The translations under genes and the position numbers were made by a program. A stretch of 64,000 bases of DNA from the NCBI RefSeq assembly GCF_055900595.2, contig NZ_CM148325.1; one strand, 5' to 3'. The number at the start of each line of letters is the position of its first letter. Position 1 is the first letter of the stretch. Positions 1-53,837 of this stretch are shown here, piece after piece. The notes below the pieces were generated by a model. That model did no database searches and was not told where the DNA came from. It worked only from the letters and a program-made list of their open reading frames with translations.

Positions 1-808
1 GTGGATCAATCTCTCCAGGCGTTATCAGCGCGGGTAAACCCAACACGATGACAATATTAAAAATGTTTGCGCCAATGATATTCCCGACAGCAATGTCGTT
101 TTCACCTTTGCGAACCCCCGCGATTGCGGTTGCCAGTTCTGGCAGACTGGTTCCGATAGCGATTGCCGTCAGACCCATCGTCAACTCGCTGATGGCAAAG
201 TAATTCGCCAGCACCGTGGCGTTATCAACCACCATCCGCGTGGCCACTGGCATGATGATCAGCGCAATGCCGAGCCATAAAAACGCGACGGGCAATCCGC
301 CTTCACGCGGCAGCTCTGCAAGCTGCTCTCTGGTCAGGCTGTCAGTCCCCTGACGTTCAGCCAGACGTGCAAGTTTAACAATGAACAGCAGCCATAGCAC
401 AGCCAGAAAGAGGAGAAAGATACCATCGCTGCGACTAAGTTGTCCGTCATAGAGTACGGAACCGGCCACCACACTGACCAACAACATTAAGGGTAATTCG
501 CGGCGCAGAACATCGGAATGGACGGTAAAAGGACGTACCAGCGCAGCCAGACCGAGGATCAGCAAAATATTGATAATGTTTGATCCGAGGGCTACACCAA
601 CGGCTAAATCGCGTTGTTCGTGCAGTGATGCGGCAAGCGAAACGATGATTTCTGGTAACGATGTGCCAATACTGACCACCGTCATGCCGATGATCAGTGG
701 CGGTATGCCAAAGGATCGGCAAAGAATGGACGCGGCAAATACCAGGCGGTCGGCACTGTAAACGACCAAAAGTAAACCAACAATTAACAGTGCCGTAGCT
801 AAAAGCAT
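1..808 (-). CDS. yrbG: Inner-membrane Ca2+/Na+ antiporter-family protein YrbG, N-terminal part (3' end lies beyond window start)
   Basis: Reverse-strand ATG at 808 gives MLLATALLIV...; open frame runs to the window edge; located upstream of mlaF as in E. coli. Confidence 0.8.
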   Translation of the reverse strand, partial: MLLATALLIVGLLLVVYSADRLVFAASILCRSFGIPPLIIGMTVVSIGTSLPEIIVSLAASLHEQRDLAVGVALGSNIINILLILGLAALVRPFTVHSDVLRRELPLMLLVSVVAGSVLYDGQLSRSDGIFLLFLAVLWLLFIVKLARLAERQGTDSLTREQLAELPREGGLPVAFLWLGIALIIMPVATRMVVDNATVLANYFAISELTMGLTAIAIGTSLPELATAIAGVRKGENDIAVGNIIGANIFNIVIVLGLPALITPGEIDP

Positions 809-24745: not shown

Positions 24746-27418
24746 ATGACAGATGTAACGATTAAAACGCTGGCCGCAGAGCGACAGACCTCCGTGGAAC
24801 GCCTGGTACAGCAATTTGCTGATGCAGGTATCCGGAAGTCTGCTGACGACTCTGTGTCCGCACAAGAGAAACAGACTTTAATTGACCACCTGAATCAGAA
24901 AAATTCAGGCCCGGACAAATTAACGCTGCAACGTAAAACCCGCAGCACCCTTAACATTCCTGGTACCGGTGGAAAAAGCAAATCGGTACAAATCGAAGTC
25001 CGCAAGAAACGCACCTTTGTGAAACGCGATCCGCAAGAGGCTGAACGCCTTGCTGCGGAAGAGCAGGCGCAGCGTGAAGCGGAAGAGCAAGCCCGTCGTG
25101 AGGCAGAAGAATCGGCCAAACGCGAGGCGCAACAAAAAGCTGAACGTGAGGCCGCAGAACAAGCTAAGCGTGAAGCCGCTGAACAAGCGAAACGTGAAGC
25201 TGCGGAAAAAGACAAAGTGAGCAATCAACAAGACGATATGACTAAAAACGCCCAGGCTGAAAAAGCCCGCCGTGAGCAGGAAGCTGCAGAGCTCAAGCGT
25301 AAAGCTGAAGAAGAAGCGCGTCGTAAACTCGAAGAAGAAGCACGTCGCGTTGCTGAAGAAGCACGTCGTATGGCGGAAGAAAACAAATGGACTGATAACG
25401 CGGAACCGACTGAAGATTCCAGCGATTATCACGTTACTACTTCTCAACATGCTCGCCAGGCAGAAGACGAAAGCGATCGTGAAGTCGAAGGCGGCCGTGG
25501 CCGTGGTCGTAACGCGAAAGCAGCGCGTCCGAAGAAAGGCAACAAACACTCTGAATCAAAAGCTGATCGTGAAGAAGCACGCGCAGCAGTACGTGGCGGT
25601 AAAGGCGGGAAACGTAAAGGTTCTTCGCTGCAGCAAGGCTTCCAGAAGCCAGCTCAGGCCGTTAACCGTGACGTTGTGATTGGCGAAACCATCACCGTTG
25701 GCGAACTGGCGAACAAGATGGCGGTTAAAGGTTCTCAGGTCATCAAAGCGATGATGAAACTGGGCGCAATGGCAACCATCAACCAGGTTATCGATCAGGA
25801 AACCGCACAGCTGGTTGCTGAAGAGATGGGCCACAAAGTTATCCTGCGTCGTGAAAACGAGCTGGAAGAAGCGGTAATGAGCGACCGTGACACGGGTGCT
25901 GCGGCTGAACCGCGCGCGCCGGTTGTGACCATCATGGGTCACGTTGACCACGGTAAAACCTCTTTGCTGGACTACATTCGTTCAACGAAAGTGGCCTCTG
26001 GCGAAGCGGGCGGCATTACCCAGCACATTGGTGCATACCACGTTGAAACTGAAAACGGCATGATCACCTTCCTGGACACCCCGGGGCACGCCGCGTTTAC
26101 TTCAATGCGTGCACGTGGTGCGCAGGCAACGGACATCGTAGTCCTGGTTGTTGCTGCCGACGACGGCGTAATGCCGCAGACCATCGAAGCAATTCAGCAC
26201 GCGAAAGCGGCAGGCGTGCCGGTTGTGGTTGCAGTGAACAAGATCGACAAACCAGAAGCCGATCCAGATCGCGTTAAGAACGAACTCTCTCAGTACGGCA
26301 TCCTGCCGGAAGAGTGGGGCGGTGAAAGCCAGTTCGTACACGTGTCTGCGAAAGCAGGTACCGGTATCGATGAACTGCTGGACGCTATCCTGTTGCAGGC
26401 AGAAGTTCTGGAACTGAAAGCGGTACGTAAAGGTATGGCGAGCGGTGCGGTTATCGAATCCTTCCTCGATAAAGGTCGTGGTCCGGTTGCTACTGTTCTG
26501 GTACGTGAAGGTACTCTGCACAAGGGCGACATCGTTCTGTGTGGTTTCGAATACGGTCGTGTTCGCGCAATGCGTAACGAAATGGGTCAGGAAGTGCTGG
26601 AAGCAGGTCCGTCCATTCCAGTTGAAATCCTTGGCTTGTCCGGTGTTCCGGCAGCGGGTGACGAAGTTACCGTAGTGCGTGACGAGAAGAAAGCACGTGA
26701 AGTTGCACTGTATCGTCAGGGCAAATTCCGTGAAGTTAAACTGGCACGTCAGCAGAAATCGAAACTCGAGAACATGTTCGCCAACATGACCGAAGGCGAA
26801 GTTCACGAAGTGAACATCGTTCTGAAGGCAGACGTTCAGGGTTCCGTGGAAGCGATCTCCGACTCCTTGCTGAAACTGTCTACTGACGAAGTTAAAGTGA
26901 AGATTATCGGTTCTGGCGTAGGTGGTATCACCGAAACCGACGCTACCCTGGCTGCGGCGTCCAACGCCATCCTGGTTGGCTTCAACGTACGTGCTGATGC
27001 CTCTGCACGTAAAGTGATTGAAGCGGAAAGCCTGGATCTGCGTTACTACTCCGTCATCTATAACCTGATCGACGAAGTGAAAGCGGCGATGAGCGGTATG
27101 CTGTCTCCGGAACTGAAACAGCAGATTATCGGTCTGGCGGAAGTTCGTGATGTGTTCAAATCACCGAAATTTGGTGCCATCGCAGGTTGTATGGTTACTG
27201 AAGGTGTGGTTAAACGTCACAACCCGATCCGCGTTCTGCGCGACAACGTGGTTATCTACGAAGGCGAGCTGGAGTCCCTGCGCCGCTTCAAAGATGACGT
27301 TAACGAAGTCCGTAACGGTATGGAATGTGGTATCGGCGTTAAGAACTACAACGACGTCCGCACTGGCGATGTGATCGAAGTATTCGAAATCATCGAGATC
27401 CAACGTACCATCGCTTAA
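24746..27418 (+). CDS. infB: Translation initiation factor IF-2
   Basis: 890 aa ORF with E/A/R/K-rich N-terminal region and GTPase motifs ([18 protein letters not shown]). Confidence 0.95.
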
Positions 27419-27435
27419 GGTTTTTAGGGTTCTAT

Positions 27436-27510
27436 GCGGGATAAGGCGTTTACGCCGCATCCGGCATGGATTGCCTGATGCGACGCTGGCGCATCTTATC
27501 AGGCTACGTG
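27436..27510. repeat. REP (repetitive extragenic palindrome) elements between infB and rbfA
   Basis: gcgggataaggcgtttacgccgcatccggc... and ...gcctgatgcgacgctggcgcatcttatcaggc, typical REP sequence. Confidence 0.55.
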
Positions 27511-32905: not shown

Positions 32906-34787
32906 ATTCGAAACCACTTTTGCAGATCTGGGCCTGAAGGCTCCTATCCTTGAAGCCCTTAACGATCTGGGTTACGAAAAACCATCTCCAATTCAGGCAG
33001 AGTGTATTCCACATCTGCTGAATGGCCGCGACGTTCTGGGTATGGCCCAGACGGGGAGCGGAAAAACGGCAGCATTCTCTTTACCTCTGCTGCAAAATCT
33101 TGATCCTGAGCTGAAAGCACCACAGATTCTGGTGCTGGCACCGACCCGCGAACTGGCGGTACAGGTTGCTGAGGCAATGACGGATTTCTCTAAACACATG
33201 CGCGGCGTAAACGTGGTTGCCCTGTACGGCGGCCAGCGTTATGACGTGCAATTACGCGCCCTGCGTCAGGGGCCGCAGATCGTTGTCGGTACTCCAGGCC
33301 GTCTGCTGGACCACCTGAAACGTGGCACTCTGGACCTCTCTAAACTGAGCGGTCTGGTTCTGGATGAAGCTGACGAAATGCTGCGCATGGGCTTCATCGA
33401 AGACGTTGAAACCATTATGGCGCAGATCCCGGAAGGTCATCAGACCGCTCTGTTCTCTGCAACTATGCCGGAAGCGATTCGTCGCATTACCCGCCGCTTT
33501 ATGAAAGAGCCGCAGGAAGTACGCATTCAGTCCAGCGTGACTACCCGTCCTGACATCAGCCAGAGCTACTGGACTGTGTGGGGGATGCGTAAAAACGAAG
33601 CGCTGGTACGTTTCCTGGAAGCGGAAGATTTTGATGCGGCGATTATCTTCGTTCGTACTAAAAACGCGACTTTGGAAGTGGCAGAAGCTCTTGAGCGTAA
33701 CGGCTACAACAGCGCTGCACTGAACGGTGACATGAACCAGGCGCTGCGTGAGCAGACTCTGGAACGCCTGAAAGATGGTCGTCTGGATATCCTGATTGCG
33801 ACCGACGTTGCGGCCCGTGGCCTGGACGTTGAGCGTATCAGCCTGGTAGTTAACTACGATATCCCGATGGATTCCGAGTCTTACGTTCACCGTATTGGTC
33901 GTACAGGCCGTGCGGGGCGTGCTGGTCGTGCGCTGCTGTTCGTTGAGAACCGCGAGCGTCGTCTGCTGCGCAACATTGAACGCACTATGAAGCTGACCAT
34001 TCCGGAAGTAGAACTGCCGAACGCAGAGCTGCTGGGCAAACGCCGTCTGGAAAAATTCGCCGCTAAAGTACAGCAGCAGCTGGAAAGCAGCGATCTGGAT
34101 CAATACCGTGCACTGCTGAGCAAAATTCAGCCGACTGCAGAAGGTGAAGAGCTGGATCTCGAAACTCTGGCAGCCGCACTGCTGAAAATGGCACAGGGTG
34201 AACGTACTCTGATCGTGCCGCCAGATGCGCCGATGCGTCCGAAACGTGAATTCCGTGACCGTGATGACCGTGGTCCGCGCGATCGTAACGACCGTGGCCC
34301 GCGTGGCGACCGTGAAGATCGTCCACGTCGTGAACGTCGTGATGTTGGCGATATGCAGCTGTACCGTATTGAAGTGGGCCGCGATGATGGTGTTGAAGTT
34401 CGTCATATCGTTGGCGCGATTGCTAACGAAGGTGACATCAGCAGCCGTTACATCGGTAACATCAAGCTGTTTGCTTCTCACTCCACCATCGAACTGCCGA
34501 AAGGTATGCCGGGTGAAGTGCTGCAACACTTTACGCGTACTCGCATTCTCAACAAGCCGATGAACATGCAGTTACTGGGCGATGCACAGCCGCATACTGG
34601 CGGTGAGCGTCGTGGCGGTGGTCGTGGTTTCGGTGGCGAACGTCGTGAAGGCGGTCGTAACTTCAGCGGTGAACGCCGTGAAGGTGGTCGTGGTGATGGT
34701 CGTCGTTTCAGCGGCGAACGTCGTGAAGGCCGCGCGCCGCGTCGTGATGACTCTACTGGTCGTCGTCGTTTCGGTGGTGATGCGTAA
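32898..34787 (+). CDS. deaD: Cold-shock DEAD-box ATP-dependent RNA helicase DeaD (CsdA)
   Basis: ATG at 32898 gives [16 protein letters not shown]..., 629 aa; motifs [25 protein letters not shown]; RGG-rich C-terminus. Confidence 0.9.
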
Positions 34788-42617: not shown

Positions 42618-43658
42618 ATGACTGGTCAGTCTTCATCTCAGGCGGCAACGCCCATTCAGTGGTGGAAACCCGCGCTTTTCTTTCTCGTTGTCATTGCCGG
42701 ACTTTGGTATGTGAAATGGCAACCTTACTACGGTAAAGCCTTTACTGCCGCCGAAACTCACAGTATCGGTAAATCTATCCTTGCGCAGGCGGATGCTAAT
42801 CCGTGGCAAGCTGCGTGGGACTACGCGATGGTCTATTTCCTCGCGGTATGGAAAGCGGCGGTACTGGGGGTGATCCTCGGGTCGTTGATTCAGGTGCTGA
42901 TCCCTCGTGACTGGCTGCTACGCACGCTGGGGCAATCGCGCTTTCGCGGCACGCTGCTGGGAACGCTGTTTTCGCTGCCGGGCATGATGTGTACTTGCTG
43001 TGCGGCACCGGTCGCGGCGGGGATGCGTCGCCAACAGGTGTCGATGGGCGGGGCGCTGGCATTCTGGATGGGCAATCCGTTGTTAAACCCGGCGACGCTG
43101 GTGTTTATGGGTTTTGTCCTCGGCTGGGGCTTTGCGGCGATTCGTCTGGTGGCGGGACTGGTGATGGTGTTGCTGATTGCGACCCTGGTGCAAAAATGGG
43201 TGCGTGAAACACCGCAAACACAGGCACCGGTCGAAATTGACATGCCGGAAGTGCAGGGCGGATTCTTTAGCCGCTGGGGTAGGGCGCTATGGACGCTTTT
43301 CTGGAGTACGATCCCGGTATATATCCTTGCCGTACTGGCGTTGGGTGCCGCTCGCGTCTGGTTATTCCCCCATGCCGATGGTGCTGTCGATAACAGCCTG
43401 ATGTGGGTGATTGCGATGGCGGTAGCGGGATGCTTGTTTGTCATTCCCACGGCAGCAGAAATTCCGATTGTACAAACGATGATGCTGGCAGGTATGGGAA
43501 CCGCTCCGGCGCTGGCATTGTTGATGACGCTTCCTGCTGTAAGTTTGCCGTCGCTGATAATGTTGCGTAAAGCGTTCCCGGCGAAAGCCTTATGGCTGAC
43601 GGGTGCGATGGTGGCGGTGTCTGGTGTGATTGTCGGCGGGCTGGCGCTGTTGTTCTGA
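42618..43658 (+). CDS. yraQ: Permease-family inner membrane protein YraQ
   Basis: 346 aa polytopic ORF. Confidence 0.9.
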   Translation: MTGQSSSQAATPIQWWKPALFFLVVIAGLWYVKWQPYYGKAFTAAETHSIGKSILAQADANPWQAAWDYAMVYFLAVWKAAVLGVILGSLIQVLIPRDWLLRTLGQSRFRGTLLGTLFSLPGMMCTCCAAPVAAGMRRQQVSMGGALAFWMGNPLLNPATLVFMGFVLGWGFAAIRLVAGLVMVLLIATLVQKWVRETPQTQAPVEIDMPEVQGGFFSRWGRALWTLFWSTIPVYILAVLALGAARVWLFPHADGAVDNSLMWVIAMAVAGCLFVIPTAAEIPIVQTMMLAGMGTAPALALLMTLPAVSLPSLIMLRKAFPAKALWLTGAMVAVSGVIVGGLALLF

Positions 43659-43673
43659 TTTGAGGGAAAACAT

Positions 43674-43848
43674 GTCGGATGCGGCGTAAACGCCTTATCC
43701 GACCTACGGTTTGCATCGTTGTAGGCCTGATAAGACGCGGCAAGCGTCGCATCAGGCAACGGCAGTCGGATGCGGCGCAGGCGCCTTATCCGACCTACGG
43801 TTTGCATCGTTGCAGGCCTGATAAGACGCGGCAAGCGTCGCATCAGGC
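43674..43848. repeat. Tandem BIME: two near-identical 84-bp REP-pair units at 91-bp period
   Basis: Unit 1 43674-43757 and unit 2 43765-43848, each gtcggatgcggcg...gccttatccgacctacggtttgcatcgttg.aggcctgataagacgcggcaagcgtcgcatcaggc. Confidence 0.7.
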
Positions 43849-43862
43849 ATTACAAGGCGTTG

Positions 43863-44438
43863 TTATTTAATGAACGTAAACGCCGTGGTTACCCGCTTCA
43901 CGCCGCTTACCCGGCTGGCAATATCTGCCGCCGCTTTCGCTTCACGTTCAGTCACCAGCCCCATCAGGAACACTTCACCGTTTTCGGTGGTCACTTTCAC
44001 GTTGGACGATTTCACCAGGTCGCTGGTTAAGAGCTGCGAACGCACTTTGGTGGTGATCCACGTATCGTTAGACGCTTCGCCCAGACCAATCGGCTGGCCC
44101 TGACGAATCTCGTTATACACTTCGTTGGCACCGTCTACGCCCATAGCAATCTGTTTGGCGCGAGCCGAAAGTTCAGCGTTTGGTGACTGCCCAACCAGCA
44201 GCACTTTGCCCTGATAGGCCGTTACATTAATGCGAGCTTCTTTCTTGATTTGTTCGTCTTTCGACAATGCGCTGTTCACGCGCACTTCCAGGGTTCCATC
44301 ATCCACCTGGGTGCCGACACTGCGTGGGTCAGTTGCGGCTTTTGTACCCACAGCCGCGGTGCCCACTACGGCGGCAGCAACGCAACCTTGCAACAGCAGT
44401 GCGGAAATAAGGACTGCGATTGGCGATAATGCCTTCAT
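43863..44438 (-). CDS. dolP: BON-domain outer membrane lipoprotein DolP (YraP)
   Basis: 191 aa ORF with lipobox LLLQGCVAAA. Confidence 0.9.
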   Translation of the reverse strand: MKALSPIAVLISALLLQGCVAAAVVGTAAVGTKAATDPRSVGTQVDDGTLEVRVNSALSKDEQIKKEARINVTAYQGKVLLVGQSPNAELSARAKQIAMGVDGANEVYNEIRQGQPIGLGEASNDTWITTKVRSQLLTSDLVKSSNVKVTTENGEVFLMGLVTEREAKAAADIASRVSGVKRVTTAFTFIK

Positions 44439-48375: not shown

Positions 48376-48379
48376 TTAC

Positions 48380-48412
48380 AGGCGTCGCAGCAAGAATAGA
48401 GCTGCAACGCCT
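48380..48412. terminator. Palindrome between convergent rsmI and agaI (candidate bidirectional terminator)
   Basis: ggcgtcgcagc-aagaataga-gctgcaacgcc imperfect inverted repeat filling the 49-bp gap. Confidence 0.4.
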
Positions 48413-48424
48413 ACACCGGGCGAT

Positions 48425-53660: not shown

Positions 53661-53837
53661 AAGGGAAGATTAAAGGATTGCGTGATGACGTCGCTATGTG
53701 TACCGATTGCTGGAAGCGGCGTACCGTAGAGCGGATAAGACGCGCCAGCGTCGCATTCGACACCACTGCACAGATTAAAACGAAAGAAAAAGAAAGGCCT
53801 TACGGGGGAAGTGAAGGCCCAATAAAGGAGCAAACCA

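Follow-up and report, generated by a model that had tools for sequence, protein, structure and literature searches.

What is the repeated, palindrome-rich element that separates the convergent genes yraQ and dolP, how did it come to carry two units, and does the second unit change what the locus does? The array is a known kind of element, and the K-12 version of the locus has already been catalogued as a BIME-2. BIME-2 architecture with Y and Z2 REPs, gyrase cleavage and copy-number polymorphism between strains have been described since the 1990s. What we add for this locus is an allele census across 5,426 genomes, the recognition that its junction is a family linker, and a caution on naRNA4 annotation. 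Taken as a whole, our reading is very likely correct: a two-unit BIME-2 that fills the yraQ-dolP gap, functions as its family does, and derives from an old array that collapses repeatedly.

We analysed a 64,000-nt stretch of DNA, referred to here as the window. Tandem Repeats Finder reported a single array at 43674-43849 with a period of 91, 1.9 copies, 95% matches and no indels. Its score of 324 was the highest in the window, the runner-up reaching 106. A repeat search returned direct copies of 85 nt (43674-43758 and 43765-43849), identical at 81 of 85 positions and spaced 91 bp apart. Both searches agree with the sequence-only reading, which had described a tandem BIME of two units with a 91-bp period. 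Comparison of the two units (U1 and U2) also bore out the 84-bp unit length given there, which is measured stem to stem with the copies in register over 85 nt, and the four differences listed. Three of these alter the first hairpin's loop (TAAA in U1 vs CAGG in U2), and the fourth is a T-to-C change ahead of the second hairpin (GTAG vs GCAG).

Each unit is composed of a Z-type hairpin (GTCGGATGCGGCG-loop-CGCCTTATCCGAC), CTAC, a 13-nt linker, GTAG (GCAG in unit 2) and an inverted Y hairpin (Table 1). A REP scan and hairpin typing both support the earlier description of each unit as an inverted REP pair. The ORF list and RefSeq place the array where it had been said to lie, between yraQ and dolP, the gene names being those of the RefSeq annotation on 100%-identical records. 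The intergenic gap measures 204 bp and is mostly occupied by the array. All four REPs are located between the two stop codons, with the outer REP stems 15 nt from the yraQ stop and 14 nt from the dolP stop. The region is 100% identical in E. coli Z0117EC0005 (dog, Korea) and strain 100117 (Gambia). An assembly artefact is excluded, because the 575-bp two-unit configuration recurs in 321 independent complete genomes.

Table 1. Features of the yraQ-dolP region, in window coordinates.
Feature	Coordinates	Strand	Details
yraQ (permease) CDS	42618..43658	+	stop TGA 43656-43658; ORF list, RefSeq
Unit 1 Z2-type REP	43674..43707	-	hairpin 43674-43703 (GTCGGATGCGGCGTAAACGCCTTATCCGAC) + CTAC 43704-43707; REP scan
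Unit 1 tail-to-tail linker, S type	43708..43720	.	GGTTTGCATCGTT; 13 nt
Unit 1 Y-type REP	43721..43757	+	GTAG 43721-43724 + hairpin 43725-43757
Head-to-head junction, BIME-2 's'-type linker	43758..43764	.	AACGGCA
Unit 2 Z2-type REP	43765..43798	-	hairpin 43765-43794, variant loop CAGG; CTAC 43795-43798
Unit 2 tail-to-tail linker	43799..43811	.	GGTTTGCATCGTT
Unit 2 Y-type REP	43812..43848	+	GCAG 43812-43815 replaces conserved GTAG; hairpin 43816-43848
Z2(unit 2)-junction-Y(unit 1) module	43724..43795	- (dolP-sense)	Rfam naRNA4 RF02564 match
dolP (yraP) CDS	43863..44438	-	stop 43863-43865; ORF list, RefSeq

The four imperfect palindromes, two in each unit, form hairpins of 30 or 33 nt, each with the 2-nt internal mismatch. 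They conform to the definition of a REP as an extragenic imperfect palindrome, 30-40 nt long, whose stem contains an internal mismatch. Folded singly on both strands, the hairpins ranged from -17.4 to -20.5 kcal/mol (z -4.3 to -5.7). The unit 1 Z hairpin gave -18.4 (+) and -17.4 (-) kcal/mol. The unit 1 Y hairpin, whose arms had 0 mismatches in the REP scan, gave -20.4 and -20.5 kcal/mol. The three loop substitutions left the stem energy of the unit 2 Z hairpin unaltered at -18.4 kcal/mol. The whole array gave fold z values of -6.2 (plus strand) and -6.5 (minus strand), and none of 200 shuffled sequences folded as well. The repeat and hairpin structure is not a product of chance.

Two families of BIME are distinguished by Ton-Hoang et al. 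(PMC3333891), and PMC1187871 agrees on both. BIME-1 elements combine z1 and y REPs through a long conserved L linker that often holds an IHF site, and they occur as single copies. BIME-2 elements combine z2 and y REPs through a short S linker, occur in tandem copies with s, l or r flanking motifs, and differ in copy number among strains (PMC3333891). We compared the focal array side by side with K-12 BIMEs as reference elements. It has alternating inverted Y and Z2 REPs, with perfectly matched Y arms and a TAAA loop in Z, and its Z REP matches the Z2 half of the naRNA4 consensus, the CAGG loop of unit 2 being a variant. The Z2 label itself follows from the TAAA loop and from sequence identity with REPs called z2 by others; the Z REPs of the REPtron are labelled z1 in PMC3479197. 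Among the references, the Z loop is TAAA in the BIME-2 REP325, TAAA or TGAA in the BIME-2 at tldD-yhdP, and TGAA in the BIME-1 at yaaX-yaaA.

The linkers point the same way. Counted from stem to stem, with CTAC and GTAG included, the tail-to-tail linker of the focal array measures 21 nt, compared to 25 nt in REP325 and 23-24 nt at tldD-yhdP, and 43 nt at yaaX-yaaA. Its two units are joined head to head through a 7-nt s-type motif with a 91-bp period. The corresponding values are 7 nt (AACGGCT) and 91 bp at tldD-yhdP and 13 nt and 100 bp in REP325, while yaaX-yaaA, a single pair, has neither a head-to-head linker nor a period. Copy number is also polymorphic at an otherwise conserved locus, as in BIME-2. 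On these sequence features, the focal array is a BIME-2 and not a BIME-1.

The tldD-yhdP BIME-2 of K-12 shares with the focal array the 91-bp period and the order of Z, tail-to-tail linker, inverted Y and 7-nt head-to-head linker. One of its Z REPs is identical to that of focal unit 1, and its junction is one base away from the focal one. It has seven REPs, compared to four in the focal array, and it departs from the focal array in the tail-to-tail linker (GGTTATGTTCCGTTT) and in the Y loop; because of these last two differences, the focal units are not copies of tldD-yhdP. REP325, which lies between yjdM and yjdN, encodes naRNA1-6 and is the source of the Rfam model RF02564, resembles the focal array in its alternating Y and Z2 REPs with a TAAA loop. 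Unlike the focal array, it has six units and a 13-nt 'l' linker, in addition to its longer period and tail-to-tail linker.

The sequence-only reading held that unit number at this site varies among strains, and comparison across 5,426 complete E. coli genomes bears this out within narrow bounds: one or two units, never more, or none. The E-value limits were set such that only a single uninterrupted alignment could pass them, and alleles of the same length were taken to share the same architecture, with 13 alleles checked by eye. One unit was present in 4,649 genomes (85.7%), K-12 included, and two units in 321 (5.9%), the allele of the window included. A synthetic three-unit query (E<=1e-230) detected three or more units in 0 of the 5,426 genomes. 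The remaining ~456 genomes (8.4%) had no BIME at the site, and in these only the coding flanks aligned, with a coverage of 63-65%.

Between K-12 MG1655 and the window, the gap differs by exactly one 91-bp period (113 vs 204 bp). The one-unit BIME of K-12 and most E. coli has the same site, flanks and REP-to-stop distances as the focal allele, and its unit corresponds to U1 of two-unit alleles on related haplotypes. Missing from it are the 's' junction and second unit, 91 bp together, and hence it has no head-to-head pair. The no-BIME alleles L005 and L006 carry unrelated intergenic sequence of 115-121 bp. In L005, the core CCCTCTCCCCTTTGGGGAGAGGGTTAGGGTGAGGGG agrees with the consensus that Holder et al. 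(PMC4666352) give for BoxC/TMECO intrastrand triplexes, and we report the no-BIME class as carriers of a BoxC/triplex element at this site.

How the second unit arose bears on the description of the array as tandem duplicated, which holds for the presence of two tandem units but not for a simple local duplication. Such a duplication of a one-unit ancestor, recent and produced by slippage or unequal crossing-over with no BIME-specific process, would fit the minority status of the two-unit state (5.9%), the low divergence of U1 and U2 (4 of 85 positions), and the identity of U1 to the one-unit allele that occurs in O157/O103 strains as well as on the rare haplotype of the window. However, a 91-bp duplication must leave a junction made of flanking sequence, in this case a mix of TTACAA and AAACAT. 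The observed junction, ACGGCA, matches neither the left flank (AAACAT) nor the right (TTACAA) and is the family head-to-head linker; the two-unit form is thus not a simple local duplication of the one-unit form. Divergent haplotypes and another species representative carry the same junction too, and characters of U2 are common across haplotypes. A recent local duplication is therefore improbable.

Two-unit alleles were found on at least three flank haplotypes. Per 400 flank positions, the window differs from L002 at 8 and from L015 at 19, while L003 and L004 show 14-15 differences from the window and only 3-4 from K-12. L015 comes from a genome that serves as a one-genome-per-species representative in the collection, yet is labelled E. 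coli. The junction ACGGCA (AACGGCA) is common to the window, L002 and L015, and ACAGCA (AACAGCA) is found in L003 and L004. Outside these alleles, at least two units, joined by a longer junction, are present in Escherichia sp. MOD1-EC7003, and Escherichia sp. E1V33 has one unit.

Comparison of the units within and between alleles gave two kinds of signal. Some U2-specific characters recur across haplotypes: the window and L002 have the CAGG loop in common, and L002, L003 and L004 have TGTGTCG. Other substitutions are specific to a lineage and common to both units of an allele, at four columns in L015 and one in L003/L004. The distances between U2 copies of different lineages (8-9) exceed those between U1 and U2 within an allele (2-7). 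On the rare haplotype of the window itself, the one-unit allele L018 carries a unit that is exactly U1, with no U1/U2 chimera. A pure U1 is expected from a crossover in the 36-nt identical Y tract and is compatible with either direction of change. The occurrence of a one-unit allele on this haplotype shows that copy number has changed recently.

From these patterns, we infer an old multi-unit array that has been homogenised by gene conversion and has collapsed recurrently to one unit. The two-unit state looks old because no flank sequence can account for its junction, which is found again in divergent lineages. The building of an array with the family 's' junction at this site would predate the split of the present Escherichia lineages and was presumably the work of the REP-associated transposase TnpA_REP. 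Gene conversion would since have homogenised the units, and on repeated occasions the array would have been cut back to one unit when its 85-nt direct repeats recombined. The polarity of this scheme, with two units ancestral and one derived, rests on the junction and three outgroup genomes. Array-building is usually credited to TnpA_REP, an enzyme able to assemble additional REPs and, in vitro, to cleave and recombine BIMEs (PMC3333891); independent re-expansions by TnpA_REP may also have occurred.

Binding and cleavage by TnpA_REP require the GTAG tetranucleotide, and every change to GTAG abolished cleavage in vitro (PMC3333891, PMC3479197). This conserved foot is intact in three of the four REPs of the array, namely both Z REPs, in which it reads CTAC on the plus strand (in unit 1 this is GTAG placed 5' of the Z hairpin on the minus strand), and the unit 1 Y REP. 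The unit 1 Z REP is, in addition, near-identical to the REP co-crystallised with TnpA_REP. The difference between gttgtaggc and gttgcaggc that had been noted between the units falls in this tetranucleotide. Because GCAG replaces the GTAG that TnpA_REP needs, the Y REP of unit 2 is predicted to be inert to the transposase. GTAG is kept at this position in the other two-unit alleles, and L002 instead has GCAG in unit 1.

The two-unit state creates one feature that single units lack. The interval formed by Z2 of unit 2, the junction and Y of unit 1, which exists only with two units, matched the Rfam naRNA4 model over its full length with 70.7 bits, compared to a gathering score of 59.5. Two-unit alleles scored 68.3-70.7 bits and one-unit alleles at most 38.4, and the BoxC alleles gave no match. 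The 72-nt module folds as two hairpins at -41 kcal/mol, and its linker, UGCCGUU, has a 6-nt deletion compared to the AAcGGUGCCGACU of the model. It does not have the 77-nt unit with the constant 13-nt 'l' linker that is seen in REP325.

A match of this kind could be taken to mean that the duplication makes a functional naRNA4-type sRNA, in the form of a tail on the dolP transcript, which, like the RNA reported for REP325, would bridge cruciform DNA by binding HU. Several observations fit this proposal. The match is full length, above the gathering score, confined to two-unit alleles and in the sense orientation of dolP; in REP325, too, the matches follow the sense strand of the neighbouring genes, yjdM and yjdN. 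The two-hairpin fold agrees with Qian et al., for whom two hairpins are a requirement for DNA condensation. HU binding and nucleoid condensation have been demonstrated for REP325 RNA only.

Against an sRNA, the model matched every head-to-head Z/Y pair tested, including REP325 (95-111 bits), tldD-yhdP (71-77 bits) and a pair at infB-rbfA within the window (69.9 bits). The focal score falls below those of REP325, and the linker is 6 nt shorter than its 'l' linker. No sigma-70-like promoter was detected in the array, synthesis would need read-through of the first Y hairpin, and the module is missing at this site in ~94% of E. coli. We consider a functional sRNA unlikely, to a slightly greater degree than a recent local duplication. 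Since the model matches every head-to-head Z/Y pair tested, the naRNA4 match detects BIME-2 architecture rather than an sRNA gene or a function. For annotators, matches of this model on BIME-2 head-to-head pairs should not be read as sRNA genes; beyond correct annotation, the locus has little significance.

The function of the array would be that of its family. At the RNA level, the literature (PMC12306157 among the sources) describes REPs as stabilising upstream mRNA and attenuating transcription, and the hairpins, which have no U-tract, may serve to terminate both convergent transcripts or shield their 3' ends. For translation, the summary of Liang et al. 2015 in PMC12306157 states that a REP <16 nt from a stop codon stalls terminating ribosomes, and the REPs at <16 nt from both stops may damp termination here. 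For DNA, the literature names Y REPs as the sites that gyrase cleaves preferentially inside BIME-2, and those of the array could form a weak gyrase cleavage site.

Published Topo-Seq data from K-12 (Sutormin et al., PMC6379681 table DS3) include an 83-bp 'BIMEs2' interval that lies 16,170 bp from the next BIME-2. In the window, 16,166 bp separate the array from the pair at 27432-27508, and given this near-equal spacing, we took the 83-bp interval as the K-12 version of the locus. One gyrase cleavage site was recorded there with ciprofloxacin and one with oxolinic acid, with none for rifampicin plus ciprofloxacin or for microcin B17 (PMC6379681). The signal at the one-unit locus of K-12 is thus weak, with one site in two of four conditions. 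For comparison, tldD-yhdP is the strongest gyrase-cleaved BIME-2 in the same data, with 35 cleavage sites with ciprofloxacin vs one at the one-unit yraQ-dolP locus (PMC6379681).

The second unit would add two hairpins to each 3' region and one Y REP, and would leave the spacing from REP to stop codon unchanged. Because of this unchanged spacing, its effect is probably small or neutral, and the two alleles would represent a near-neutral length polymorphism. The second unit does supply the only head-to-head Z2-s-Y module at the site and a second Y REP, and a weak BIME-2 could thereby become a lineage-specific topological or RNA element. If the second unit were not neutral, acting as a stronger gyrase site or as a naRNA4-like, HU-binding dolP tail in 5.9% of E. 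coli, it would measurably shift the expression of dolP or yraQ, or local supercoiling. We regard such an effect as unlikely, about as much so as the sRNA proposal, and favor a small or neutral contribution of the second unit.

The array might also be read as a conventional bidirectional intrinsic (Rho-independent) terminator serving the two genes. Its position between convergent genes, its strong GC-rich hairpins on both strands and the lack of another evident terminator in the gap are in keeping with that role. However, no terminator-like site, defined as a hairpin followed by a T-run, was found in 43659-43862 on either strand, and the termination attributed to REPs and BIMEs is described in the same literature as attenuation or Rho-dependent. 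A conventional intrinsic terminator is therefore very unlikely, and the family-type role in ending or protecting transcripts without a U-tract is preferred. The sole terminator-like matches in the region were weak stems within the 3' end of yraQ.

The sequence-only reading had also proposed that the structure can bind gyrase or IHF. The IHF consensus WATCAANNNNTTR was absent from 43659-43862 at <=1 mismatch, and was present in both K-12 BIME-1 controls with 0 and 1 mismatch. In the two reference BIME-2s, it was not found at <=1 mismatch. Since IHF binding belongs to the L linker of BIME-1, we retain gyrase only. The BIME-1/RIB/RIP elements at yaaX-yaaA and cueO-gcd are, like the focal array, intergenic inverted Y/Z REP pairs, and differ from it in having a long L linker with the IHF consensus, a TGAA Z loop, a single copy of ~97 bp and a match to Rfam ES036/CssrF. 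Although the focal units, like BIME-1, each consist of a Y/Z REP pair, a BIME-1/RIB-type element with an IHF-binding linker can be dismissed almost with certainty, given the short linker, the missing IHF consensus, the lack of the ES036/CssrF match that the BIME-1 L linker gives, the iteration of two pairs with TAAA/CAGG loops in an element class described as single-copy, and the cataloguing of the K-12 locus as BIME-2. Across the whole window, the IHF consensus occurred at 48 sites vs 51.9 expected, which is the chance level, and the near-match closest to the array was a 1-mismatch site at 43853-43865, outside the REPs.

The MG1655 RefSeq record examined lists no REP features at the yraQ-dolP locus. 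Several ORFs cross the array, among them one at 43679-43870 (63 aa) and one at 42890-43843 on the minus strand, antisense to yraQ. We take these to be artefacts of REP translation, and such spurious ORFs should not be annotated as genes. A CRISPR-like array was considered and rejected by inspection: what would be the 'spacers' recur as well, and REP palindromes make up both types of repeat.

A half-site scan for REP arms over the window returned the four REPs of the yraQ-dolP array, the REP pair at 27432-27508 and a degenerate singleton at 53726-53761. The array had been called the only iterated repeat array in the window. This stands for long-period and REP arrays but not overall, as Tandem Repeats Finder also reported 30 further short-period repeats (8-33 nt). 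Those compared with the annotation (infB, deaD) are coding.

The yraQ-dolP haplotype carried by the window is, by sequence comparison, rare and divergent. Compared with the common alleles of E. coli, 25-31 of 485 nt (5-6%) were different at the 3' end of yraQ (window 43174-43658) and 10-13 of 486 nt at the 3' end of dolP (window 43863-44348). Only 8 of 5,426 genomes matched the 575-bp region at 99% or higher. The haplotype is possibly a recombinational import.

Approximately 8.4% of complete E. coli genomes carry an unrelated, REP-free sequence of 115-121 bp in place of the entire yraQ-dolP intergenic region. The core of this sequence in L005, one of two alleles lacking the BIME, is CCCTCTCCCCTTTGGGGAGAGGGTTAGGGTGAGGGG, which agrees with the published BoxC/TMECO intrastrand-triplex consensus, and a degenerate copy is present in L006, the other such allele. 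Two distinct small-repeat families thus occupy the yraQ-dolP site as alternatives.

In the minimum free energy fold predicted for plus-strand RNA of the two-unit array (window 43650-43870), the two Y REPs pair with each other, the 5' arm of the one in unit 1 with the 3' arm of the one in unit 2, and the unit 2 Z hairpin is enclosed. The predicted minus-strand RNA fold retains four local hairpins. This modeling points to a possible alternative RNA pairing, a long-range interaction between the two Y REPs, that would be limited to two-unit alleles. Mechanical ORFs also traverse the array, with arginine-rich translations of the form 'MRR..LIRP..'. These are likely artefacts of REP translation, of a type able to contaminate protein databases.

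Coordinates of features associated with the yraQ-dolP site and of other repeats in the window
Feature	Sequence	Coordinates	Strand	Location or remark
BIME-2-type REP pair	window	27432-27508		between infB and rbfA; second such element in window
Degenerate solitary REP-like palindrome	window	53726-53761		4 mismatches to arm consensus
Tandem repeat, 24-nt period	window	25055-25381		inside infB, coding; by coordinate mapping
Tandem repeat, 33-nt period	window	34600-34706		deaD 3' end, coding; by coordinate mapping
Replacement intergenic sequence	L005 (E. coli strain Br_167_kylling)	486-606		equivalent to window 43659-43862
Replacement intergenic sequence	L006 (E. coli strain HS-02)	486-600		equivalent to window 43659-43862
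Mechanical ORF through REP array	window	43679-43870	+	
Mechanical ORF through REP array	window	43770-44030	+	
Mechanical ORF through REP array	window	43441-43752	-	
Mechanical ORF through REP array	window	42890-43843	-	317 aa; also antisense to yraQ

The infB-rbfA element consists of a TAAA-loop Z and a Y REP arranged head to head across a 7-nt linker, and its plus strand scored 69.9 bits, above the Rfam naRNA4 gathering score. Its counterpart in K-12 is a BIME-2 of 76 bp, for which the Topo-Seq table (PMC6379681) lists one gyrase site under ciprofloxacin. The L linker of the K-12 yaaX-yaaA BIME-1 (L011 144-186) matched Rfam ES036/CssrF at 38.7 bits, compared to a gathering score of 37.6. With this match, Rfam 'sRNA' families cover the linker of BIME-1 as well as the head-to-head pair of BIME-2, and repeated matches to both models are expected in any E. 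coli genome.

Coordinate mapping to NZ_CP098223.1 placed the REP-like palindrome between nagA/agaA and agaS. The remaining tandem repeats of appreciable size in the window, those in infB and deaD, have short periods and are unrelated to REPs. Mapping from the same sequence also showed that rsmI directly adjoins agaI (~48376-48424), whereas in K-12 MG1655 the yra fimbrial operon genes yraJ and yraK lie immediately upstream of rsmI; based on this difference, the yra fimbrial operon appears to be absent from the window's strain.
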